A stretch of DNA of 64,000 bases from Spirochaetota bacterium (GTDB lineage: Bacteria > Spirochaetota > UBA4802 > UBA5550): positions 26,348-90,347 of the forward strand of contig JBNKTL010000016.1 in the NCBI GenBank assembly GCA_050298055.1, in the 5' to 3' direction. The first letter of the stretch is position 1, and every line of letters begins with the position of its first letter. The notes below the pieces were generated by a model. That model saw only the letters and a list, made by a program, of their open reading frames with translations. It was not told where the DNA came from and did no database searches. Positions 23,521 through 24,871 of this stretch are shown here, one piece after another. The position numbers and the translations under genes were made by a program.

Positions 23521-23556
23521 AATAGGCGATGATAAAAATCATCGCCTATTTTTTTG
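23521..23556 (+). terminator. Rho-independent terminator
   Basis: AATAGGCGATGAT-AAAA-ATCATCGCCTATT followed by a T-tract, just after the lipoprotein gene. Confidence 0.85.
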
Positions 23557-23834
23557 TTTGATTTTTTTATTTCATCTCTTTGGAAGGTCTGCCCTCACGA
23601 TTTTGAATAAATTCATGAAAATGAATATGCACCCTCAACAAAAAGTGTTATTTTGATAATTTTTATGGACATCTAGTCCAATATACGCTATTATTTTACA
23701 CACGAGTTTAATTCATCCTTTATTGATTTGTTCACTATTTTTATCATAGTATTAACTGGTTTGCATAGGGAAATCTCGAGGATCACTACACACACCCATA
23801 CTATCGATAAAAAAATAAATGAAAGGAGGTTGAT

Positions 23835-24686
23835 ATGCTGTGGAATAGATGCAGGATATGTCTGATACTTGCCGTGTTTTTGCTTATGCCCTTACAGCCA
23901 CAAATTGTGACGGCGGACAAGGGAAAGGTTTATTACATCGGCATCATTCCTACCTGGCCCCCTGTAGTCACCCATACAAAATGGTCGCCGTTCGCTAAAC
24001 GGCTTTCCCATGTCACCGGTCTTACCTTCCGGCTAAAAGTATACGAAAAAATGCGTGATTTTGAGCGGGACATCATTTCACCGGAGGCCCCCGATTTCAT
24101 CTTCGCAAACGCCCTCCAGATCGTTGTGGCCCATAAGTTGCAGGGCTTTATCCCGCTGGTCCGGGGCGGTCCTACCGTCAAGGCAATCATCTTTGTGCGC
24201 CAGGACTCTCCCTTCAAGGTCATCGACGACCTTGCTGGCAAGCGAATCGCCTTTGTCGGAGAAAAGAACGTCTGAACCATCTTCCTCAGACACGTGTTGT
24301 CTGTGCAAAAAGGGAAATTGGCTTTCGATACGAGCTACAGCGGTTCGACGAAGAATGCGATCATACAGGTGTTGCTGGGTAAGGCAGACGCTGGAGTGAC
24401 CGTCGGCCCGGCGCTCGCCAGAGAGACGAAGAATATTCCCGGCAAGCTCCGGACTTTGCTTGAGTCGCCAGGACTCCCTTCTCATCCGCTCTGTGCTCAC
24501 CCTCGTATTCCGGAGACCGTCCGGGCGTCGGTCAGGAAGGGCATATTCACCATTGTGAAAACGCCCAAAGGTGAGGAACTCATGCGTCAGGTCAGAATGC
24601 CGGATCCGACAATCGCCAATTATAAAAGGGACTATAAATCACTGGAGAGTATTGATATAAAATTTCTGTCGAATTGGGGTAAATAA
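23835..24686 (+). CDS. PhnD/phosphonate-type substrate-binding protein with one in-frame TGA (24273-24275); candidate selenoprotein or pseudogene
   Basis: ORFs 23835..24275 and 24294..24686 share one frame (offset 459). Read-through gives 283 aa with a signal peptide, GIIP, PDFIFAN, IIFVRQDSP..DDLAGKRIAF, VLLGKADAG and LPSHPLCAHP. Strong AAAGGAGG RBS. Confidence 0.8.
24276..24315 (+). other. Candidate bacterial SECIS hairpin
   Basis: CAGACA(24287-24292)-CGTGT-TGTCTG(24298-24303) begins 11 nt after the TGA. The loop has G at position 2 followed by T. A TTCCT/GGGAA lower stem is possible. Confidence 0.55.
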
Positions 24687-24786
24687 GATGTCACTGTTGT
24701 TATTCCGTTTTTATGGATTCAGGAGATTTTACCCTAAAATCTCTGAAAGAAGAAGGAGATACAGCAAGGATCTTTATGAGAAACTC

Positions 24787-24871
24787 TGCCCAGGGCGGGA
24801 CTTGAACCCGCACGCCCCGAAGAGCAAGGGATTTTAAGTCCCTTGTGTCTACCAAATTCCACCACCTGGGC
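24787..24871 (-). tRNA. tRNA-Leu(TAA)
   Basis: Reverse complement GCCCAGGTGGTGGAATTTGGTAGACACAAGGGACTTAAAATCCCTT...GGTTCAAGTCCCGCCCTGGGCA. Confidence 0.97.

Follow-up and report, generated by a model that had tools for sequence, protein, structure and literature searches.

A candidate selenocysteine-containing family of periplasmic binding proteins encoded beside sensor kinases

Described relatives and the read-through gene

Several described systems come close to the gene reported here. AioX, ArxX and ArrX are binding proteins whose genes lie beside that of a sensor histidine kinase, and in three-component arsenic sensing of the AioXSR type AioX has been proposed to dock on AioS (PMC5908839). 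PhnD, PtxB and HtxB share the fold and the PF12974 domain of the present protein. SaoB (NF040727), SaoX (NF040735) and the CxxU selenoprotein BtuF are exported binding proteins whose cleft contains selenocysteine (Sec), as proposed here, and SaoB and SaoX, too, came to light through proteins truncated where a Cys is conserved (Haft and Gwadz, bioRxiv 10.1101/2022.07.06.499078). Lastly, members of the present family weakly match the N-terminal region of the tetrathionate sensor kinase TtrS (NF040750), with E-values of 2e-4 to 9e-3.

The differences are as clear as the likenesses. ArrX is the best sequence match among solved structures (E 1.9e-6; 5.5e-11 with a profile) and the pairing of binding-protein and histidine-kinase genes is true of the family, though not of the copy studied here, whereas identity to AioX, ArxX and ArrX is only ∼20% and their pocket residues are exchanged. 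In contrast with PhnD, PtxB and HtxB, the family lies far below the curated cut-offs, has no adjacent permease or ATPase gene and does not conserve the anion clamp. SaoB, SaoX and BtuF have CU, UxP or CxxU motifs, several Cys residues and a role in ABC transport, whereas here there is one Cys/Sec and a kinase. Matches to TtrS stay far under its cut-off, and a search for longer proteins at 1e-20 turned up no fused binding protein-sensor form, which is weak evidence. The family most probably works like AioX and ArrX, yet belongs neither to AioX/ArrX, nor to PhnD, nor to SaoB/SaoX.

Published lists of selenoproteins do not appear to contain it. Table 1 of a 2026 survey (PMC13188914) gives 119 prokaryotic families, including those of Haft and Tolstoy 2025; its binding-protein entries are SaoB, SaoX and BtuF, and the table has neither a PF12974 entry nor a Sec form of AioX or ArrX. 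To judge by their names, the 119 families are mostly redox enzymes, with a few transporter parts and some hypothetical proteins, and no sensor subunit of a kinase pathway is among them. The terms 'phosphonate', 'PhnD', 'PF12974' and 'ArrX' do not occur in the accessible part of Haft and Gwadz, deep-Sep reports nine other families in its Table 3 (PMC12013277), and the accessible text and Table S1 of BSepDB (PMC13326102) make no mention of the family. Full-text literature searches returned no description of it, and the candidate list of Deng et al. 2026 could include it. As far as these sources extend, the find is best regarded as a selenoprotein family that is new while its kind of recoding is known, its distinguishing feature being a proposed role in kinase-coupled periplasmic sensing that the published lists lack; the family would extend selenium into two-component signalling.

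In the window, that is, the whole analysed stretch of 64,000 nucleotides, the read-through gene occupies positions 23835..24686 of the forward strand. A Shine-Dalgarno-like AGGAGG (23824..23829, +) precedes its ATG, and its AAAGGAG stretch recurs in the homologous loci L018 and L026. The frame has one internal stop only, a TGA at codon 147 (24273..24275, +) in the context AFVGEKNV-TGA-TIFLRHVL, and read-through yields 283 aa with the periplasmic binding fold of PF12974 (133.9 bits; model pLDDT 92; structure comparison). The first ∼27 residues (23835..23915, +) are a probable signal peptide, on the grounds of hydrophobic residues 7-20 and low pLDDT. Residue 147 falls on the invariant Cys column of the family and, in the model, in the first turn of the cleft helix 146-157; 136 open codons follow it as the C-terminal half (24276..24686, +). 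The sequence-only reading had described a single TGA splitting two in-frame ORFs with a read-through of 283 aa, had placed Sec near the start of the helix after the KRIAF strand, and had expected gene callers to split the gene. All of this holds, and in the databases the two halves figure as separate entries.

Purifying selection acts on either half of the gene. Set against its two closest Sec homologues, the whole gene has a pairwise dN/dS of ∼0.2 (0.18-0.30 when the halves are taken apart) at a dS of ∼0.5; for the C-terminal half it is 0.20-0.30 against these two and 0.39 against a Cys homologue. Upstream, between a lipoprotein-like gene and the selenoprotein gene, lies a 13-bp inverted repeat with a T tail (23521-23550), a probable terminator. 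A promoter scan gave chance-level results, and only tRNAs were above the Rfam gathering scores.

The hairpin after the TGA

For the TGA to be read, SelB would bind a hairpin downstream of it and UGA147 would be decoded as Sec, giving a 283-aa exported type II periplasmic binding protein. A hairpin of the bacterial SECIS kind is present at 24287..24303 (+): stem strands CAGACA (24287-24292) and TGTCTG (24298-24303) enclose the loop CGTGT, the stem starting 11 nt after the TGA, as the sequence-only reading had it, and the loop 17 nt after the UGA. RNA folding of the window copy predicts a longer hairpin that includes a 5-bp lower stem (24282..24316, +), with a minimum free energy (MFE) of -9.8 kcal/mol. 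The bSECIS model provides for a loop of 3-9 nt, a stem of 4-16 bp, G within the first two loop positions, a spacing of 16-37 nt and an MFE of at most -7.5 kcal/mol (PMC13188914). With its 5-nt loop CGUGU, 6-bp stem, 17-nt spacing and MFE of -9.8, the window copy fits that model. The energy limit of -7.5 kcal/mol is reached by 12 of the 14 known TGA loci and missed by two, in a 45-nt window.

Taken alone, the stability of the window hairpin is unremarkable (z = -0.4 to -1.2 against shuffles), but its position is rare: only 512 of 41,472 synonymous recodings (1.2%) of its seven codons would yield this strict geometry. Across the host genome the strict geometry follows 6 of 4,468 TGA-ended six-frame ORFs of at least 100 aa, as against 9 of 3,627 ended by TAA and 2 of 1,787 ended by TAG. 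All six pairs form at the identical position in each of the 14 TGA loci and in none of 32 Cys loci, where the maximum is five pairs, and the pair probability of the stem is 0.68-1.0 in the former (0.97 in the window copy) vs 0-0.48 in the latter; the hairpin is absent from a Cys homologue at 76% identity. The stem occurs as CAGACA/TGTCTG, GAGACA/TGTCTC and GCGGCA/TGTCGC, with G-U wobbles. In this set 84 of 84 cells are paired, compared with 17-60% in slid controls, two pairs have changed on both sides, and the covariation score was reached by none of 500 shuffles; the changes amount to about two independent events, in related sequences.

These data bear on the objection that the TGA is a nonsense mutation or a sequencing error in a pseudogene or split gene. 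TGC or TGT turns into TGA by a single change, and the two separate database proteins would be expected of a broken gene. Across the TGA, contigs from runs X1 and X2 agree fully with this sequence, but the two runs are possibly the source of this DNA and hence not independent, and run X4, from another study, stops short of the TGA. It is the conservation of the TGA across genomes that argues against a sequencing error. A TGA in 14 loci of two deep lineages, never replaced by TAA or TAG, followed by a covarying hairpin and an open tail of 135-136 codons, and in this gene by a C-terminal half under purifying selection, makes error or decay of the frame an extremely improbable explanation. The window TGA is almost certainly decoded as selenocysteine, and the gene a selenoprotein gene, as judged from comparative sequence evidence.

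Cys forms, Sec forms and the genomes that carry them

Whether Cys or a conserved TGA occupies this column in homologues was the first test put forward by the sequence-only reading, and both are found. Among 85 homologues of similar length the residue is Cys in 76, Ala in seven and Ser in one, and one protein ends exactly there; Trp or Arg occurs in none of the 85, and the eight with Ala or Ser are distant (30-36% identity). TGA recurs in 14 distinct loci. In a 52-row alignment (A1), whose rows were picked as Cys-type, the Cys is invariant. Among 146 distant representatives assessed with a regular expression, the column is Cys in 15, the protein end in three and another residue in 55, and 73 could not be placed. 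The family has no second conserved Cys, only this single column in the motif G-x-K-N-L/V-U-S/T. A large sister subfamily has Ala in place of the Cys, in the motif P-N-A-x-A-A-S (L060-L062, L067-L069; P0078-P0086), and would serve as a natural non-reactive control.

Truncated proteins tell of the same column. Of 49 shorter database proteins, 45 are N-terminal halves ending on the residue just before it (39 recognised by a strict pattern and six by eye, including the window gene and its paralogue; their stop codons were mostly not seen), and the other four are C-terminal halves. Together with four from other searches, the 45 N-terminal halves make a set of 49, which forms 32 groups at 80% identity. 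The family explains dozens of database proteins cut at ∼145 aa, and it would mark the invariant Cys of a widespread subfamily, mis-annotated as 'phosphonate-binding', as chemically active.

At the DNA level, 14 distinct loci have a stop at the column, which is TGA in all 14, and their tails are open for 135-136 codons. Two are in the host genome, one is from an uncultured Desulfobacter, four are on metagenome contigs and seven come from the order of genome G371, these seven being all the TGA cases among 53 matches in 48 of its 239 genomes. The 32 Cys loci are 31 of the 46 stop-free matches from the same order plus L017. The four metagenome loci are the real homologues kept from 39 loci returned by a DNA-pattern scan, the other 35 having been dropped as chance matches; a protein scan of metagenome contigs found no relative. 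Haft and Gwadz look for at least 10 candidate examples, 100% TGA and similarity continuing through the site, in the accessible part of their account. Here all 14 DNA-checked stops are TGA with open tails, and the truncated proteins number 45.

The second host locus, on contig C67 (L009 / L099:8531-11548), encodes a Sec paralogue that is 55% identical and has a near-identical SECIS. In quick trees the Sec forms fall in two deep lineages, with at least five changes between Sec and Cys, the direction of which is not established, and a single Sec clade is rejected (p-AU 1e-47) on 35 rows: the complete set of 13 full-length TGA sequences plus 22 selected Cys sequences. Sec would be an interchangeable, more reactive version of Cys. 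Searches limited to a few scored candidates per genome recovered the family from 5 of the 401 genomes sampled in G061's phylum, where three of the five are of the distant Ala type, from 1 of 301 in G061's order and from 1 of 251 in G062's order. A plasmid search gave no match at 1e-30, and an ESM Atlas search gave PF12974 clusters only.

The host has the genes for inserting selenium. Its genome (98% complete) carries selA, selB and tRNA-Sec(TCA) clustered on one contig, together with a selD that has its own in-frame TGA (Sec-type) and, as in the window gene, a 6-bp stem with the loop beginning 17 nt past the UGA, so that selA, selB, selC and selD, for which the sequence-only reading had proposed a search, are all present. 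Of the eight other TGA genomes, seven carry both selA and selB, and the eighth, a 1.5-Mb assembly, has a TGA-type selD; the genome of the 76%-identical Cys homologue has no match to selA, selB, selC or selD. Co-occurrence with sel genes discriminates poorly, selA being found in 47 of 50 genomes tested, among them most Cys-form genomes. On host contig C22 there are also two long ORFs with an in-frame TGA within an R-x-U-H motif, stems of 6-7 bp and loops at 19 nt; named from the motif only, they are probably Sec formate dehydrogenase alpha subunits.

An alternative is decoding of the UGA as Cys or some other residue by a special tRNA, and the host does have a second tRNA of tRNA-Sec-like architecture. 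This 90-nt tRNA, on contig C17 (L007:1501-1591, +), has a 6-bp D stem and a long variable arm and scores above the cut-off of RF01852 (61 bits). Its anticodon, however, is GCA (Cys), which does not read UGA, and the TCA tRNA is the canonical tRNA-Sec clustered with selA and selB. TGA is moreover an ordinary stop genome-wide, ending 549 of 1,833 host ORFs of at least 300 aa and 12 of 40 ORFs of at least 200 aa in the 64-kb window. A special tRNA is very improbable on these counts; global recoding of TGA is rejected, and had already been discounted when the gene was first described. The GCA tRNA is similar to the selC*-type tRNA-Cys. After it comes a 432-aa gene that by eye resembles 2-hydroxyacyl-CoA dehydratase/double-cubane proteins.

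The window copy is 84% nucleotide-identical to the Desulfobacter copy, and of 251 genomes sampled in the host phylum, again with few candidates scored per genome, the host alone showed the family; because of this patchy distribution and this identity, the data point to horizontal transfer as its probable origin. Base composition was considered as proof of transfer and rejected: the gene has 52% GC vs 30-42% nearby, but 18% of long ORFs in the genome are equally GC-rich. The window copy is the sole locus of 46 without a sensor gene. Homology to related DNA ends about four codons into the kinase gene, leaving a probable remnant (M-S-L-L; 24688..24699, +) that is short and is recognised by its spacing of 1 nt from the stop, the spacing seen in homologues. 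Beyond it is the 3' end of a tRNA-Leu(TAA) (24787..24871, -; tRNA search), which faces the selenoprotein gene and may have been an integration site.

It may be that the family is a real selenoprotein family while the window copy is a decaying orphan, left by transfer and kinase loss, with only the C67 paralogue at work. The missing sensor speaks for this, as do the position of the host genome's one sensor of this family, which adjoins the paralogue on C67, and the departure of the window copy from consensus at 6 of 64 columns conserved at 90%. On the other side, the frame, the ribosome-binding site, the signal-like N-terminus and a perfect SECIS are all intact, and dN/dS against the closest Sec homologues is ∼0.2, though averaged over time before kinase loss. 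Decay of the window copy is on balance somewhat unlikely. Having no kinase of its own, a functional window copy would at most signal via the kinase of the C67 paralogue, with which it might otherwise compete.

The putative sensor partner, the cleft and the possible signal

In 45 of the 46 loci the next gene encodes a member of one conserved membrane-sensor family and starts within ∼35 nt of the stop. A profile of this partner was built from 18 of the 45; HisKA or HATPase domains were found in 16 of 18 scanned partners and PAS only, with no kinase domain, in the other two. The converse also holds: 61 genomes yielded 19 sensor matches, 17 of them behind a gene of the family, and one of the two exceptions lies at a contig end. 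On contig C67 the PAS/HisKA sensor gene comes immediately after that of the Sec paralogue and runs off the end of the contig, and branched-chain ABC-like genes lie ∼5 kb from the paralogue on the other strand. The periplasmic part of the partner weakly resembles CHASE8/Cache. Co-folding of a Cys homologue with its own sensor domain scored 0.44, against 0.00 for the best control, which is weak support: of 157 solved complexes 116 reach the mark, as do 2 of 215 mismatches, but just 18 of those complexes do so at 0.60 or below, where both mismatches lie. The co-folding runs agree in 100% of contacts, with a partner pLDDT of at least 88.

The family would form the periplasmic input of a three-component signalling system. 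A ligand or modification at the Sec/Cys would change the surface that docks on the sensor kinase, and the closed or modified binding protein would dock on the Cache-like periplasmic domain of the next gene's sensor, as AioX/ArrX may do with AioS/ArrS; the signal would then pass through a protein with two hydrophobic segments followed by PAS and/or histidine-kinase domains. It is very likely that the family acts with a sensor kinase rather than with a transporter, and likely, with a little less assurance, that this and the selenoprotein nature of the gene are both true. A conserved relay from Sec to a Cys of the kinase was considered and rejected: the partner Cys, a semi-conserved residue of the periplasmic helix (alignment A5, column 59), is present in 8 of 18 sensors, independent of the Sec/Cys state of the binding protein.

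The alternative to a sensor is a Sec-containing substrate-binding protein of an ABC transporter, either of the phosphonate/phosphate type or for SaoB-like metal uptake. The PF12974 match, the database names and a fold tied with PtxB and close to PhnD all suggest it, and Sec-bearing ABC binding proteins do exist (SaoB and SaoX; Haft and Gwadz). However, the protein reaches 47.9 bits with TIGR03431 (cut-off 261.1) and 52.3 with TIGR01098 (cut-off 112.05), both far below; none of the NCBIfam models, selenoprotein models included, passes its cut-off, and the SaoB and SaoX models NF040727 and NF040735 do not match. An ABC ATPase motif was found in 2 of 26 loci and is adjacent in neither. Gene context largely refutes the transporter reading, and with the pocket residues also replaced it is improbable. 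The initial description as a PhnD-like binding protein is right about the PF12974 fold, but not about a phosphonate or phosphate receptor. Within PF12974 the protein is better placed in a subfamily that has no name and whose cleft helix invariably carries Cys/Sec at its N-terminus, and not among the phosphonate ABC receptors.

The nearest structures are tied at Z ∼24: XAC2383 (Z 24.5, rmsd 2.6, 249 aligned), ArrX, which is the top Foldseek match, and PtxB (VIA Z 23.9, rmsd 4.1, 248 aligned). In sequence alignments to ArrX and PtxB, whose register is uncertain by one residue, the Tyr/Tyr/Ser-Thr-Ser/His anion clamp is replaced by Met73, Val115, Asn-Val-Sec and Thr172, so that the pocket Tyr, Tyr and His of AioX, ArxX and ArrX correspond to Met73, Val115 and Thr172. 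Asn145 is the equivalent of the first Ser of the ArrX S-x-S motif, and Sec147 aligns with the second, one residue earlier vs PtxB in an alignment of the same uncertainty; the site of that second Ser is listed among the ligand contacts in the accessible part of PMC5908839. The arsenite-binding Cys106 of AioX is matched by Asn92, and by Ser in 38 of 52 alignment rows, so the reactive residue of this family takes a different position in the cleft. The selenol would lie within the cleft, at the N-terminus of a helix; the corresponding residue of PhnD and ArrX is a Ser that binds oxyanions.

Exchange between Cys and Sec usually marks a redox- or metal-reactive residue. Since there is no second conserved Cys, the chemistry would take place at a single residue, and the lone Sec/Cys most likely serves as a nucleophile towards a thiol-reactive signal, with which it reacts or which it ligates. 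The sequence-only reading had conjectured a redox- or metal(loid)-reactive receptor. Sulfane-sulfur species or oxidants are the foremost candidates, at rather less than an even chance; a lead towards sulfur species comes from the weak match to the N-terminal domain of TtrS, and folds related to XAC2383 and that domain sense sulfur oxyanions (TtrS, ThsS). Non-covalent binding of a ligand is slightly less favoured. A soft metal(loid) is a more doubtful candidate, for which AioX makes arsenite a lead. In 25 loci of 5-18 kb, with 27 proteins Pfam-scanned, no ORF was recognised as an aio, arx or arr gene or as another gene for an arsenic oxidase or reductase, and the neighbourhoods of the loci have no conserved target genes that hint at the ligand. 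One LMWPc/ArsC-like gene is present in L104.

Put together, the family may be a class of selenoproteins for extracytoplasmic sensing, in which covalent reaction of the selenol with a signal of sulfur-redox or metalloid nature switches a cognate histidine kinase, and in which Sec and Cys have repeatedly been exchanged across anaerobic lineages; this full reading is put forward tentatively, its chances falling just short of even. If it is true, natural Sec/Cys pairs (76% identical) would be at hand for measuring what selenium contributes to sensing. As Sec and Cys versions that differ little come with cognate kinases, any gain of Sec over Cys, a question of long standing, is testable by a signalling read-out.

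In one lineage (L101-L105, L100, L108, L110) the binding-protein and kinase genes end a signalling operon that also encodes PAS proteins, a CheR-PAS-kinase hybrid and a single-domain response regulator. This operon is convergent with ETF and Fe-S/CCG genes, and the synteny is common to Sec and Cys forms.
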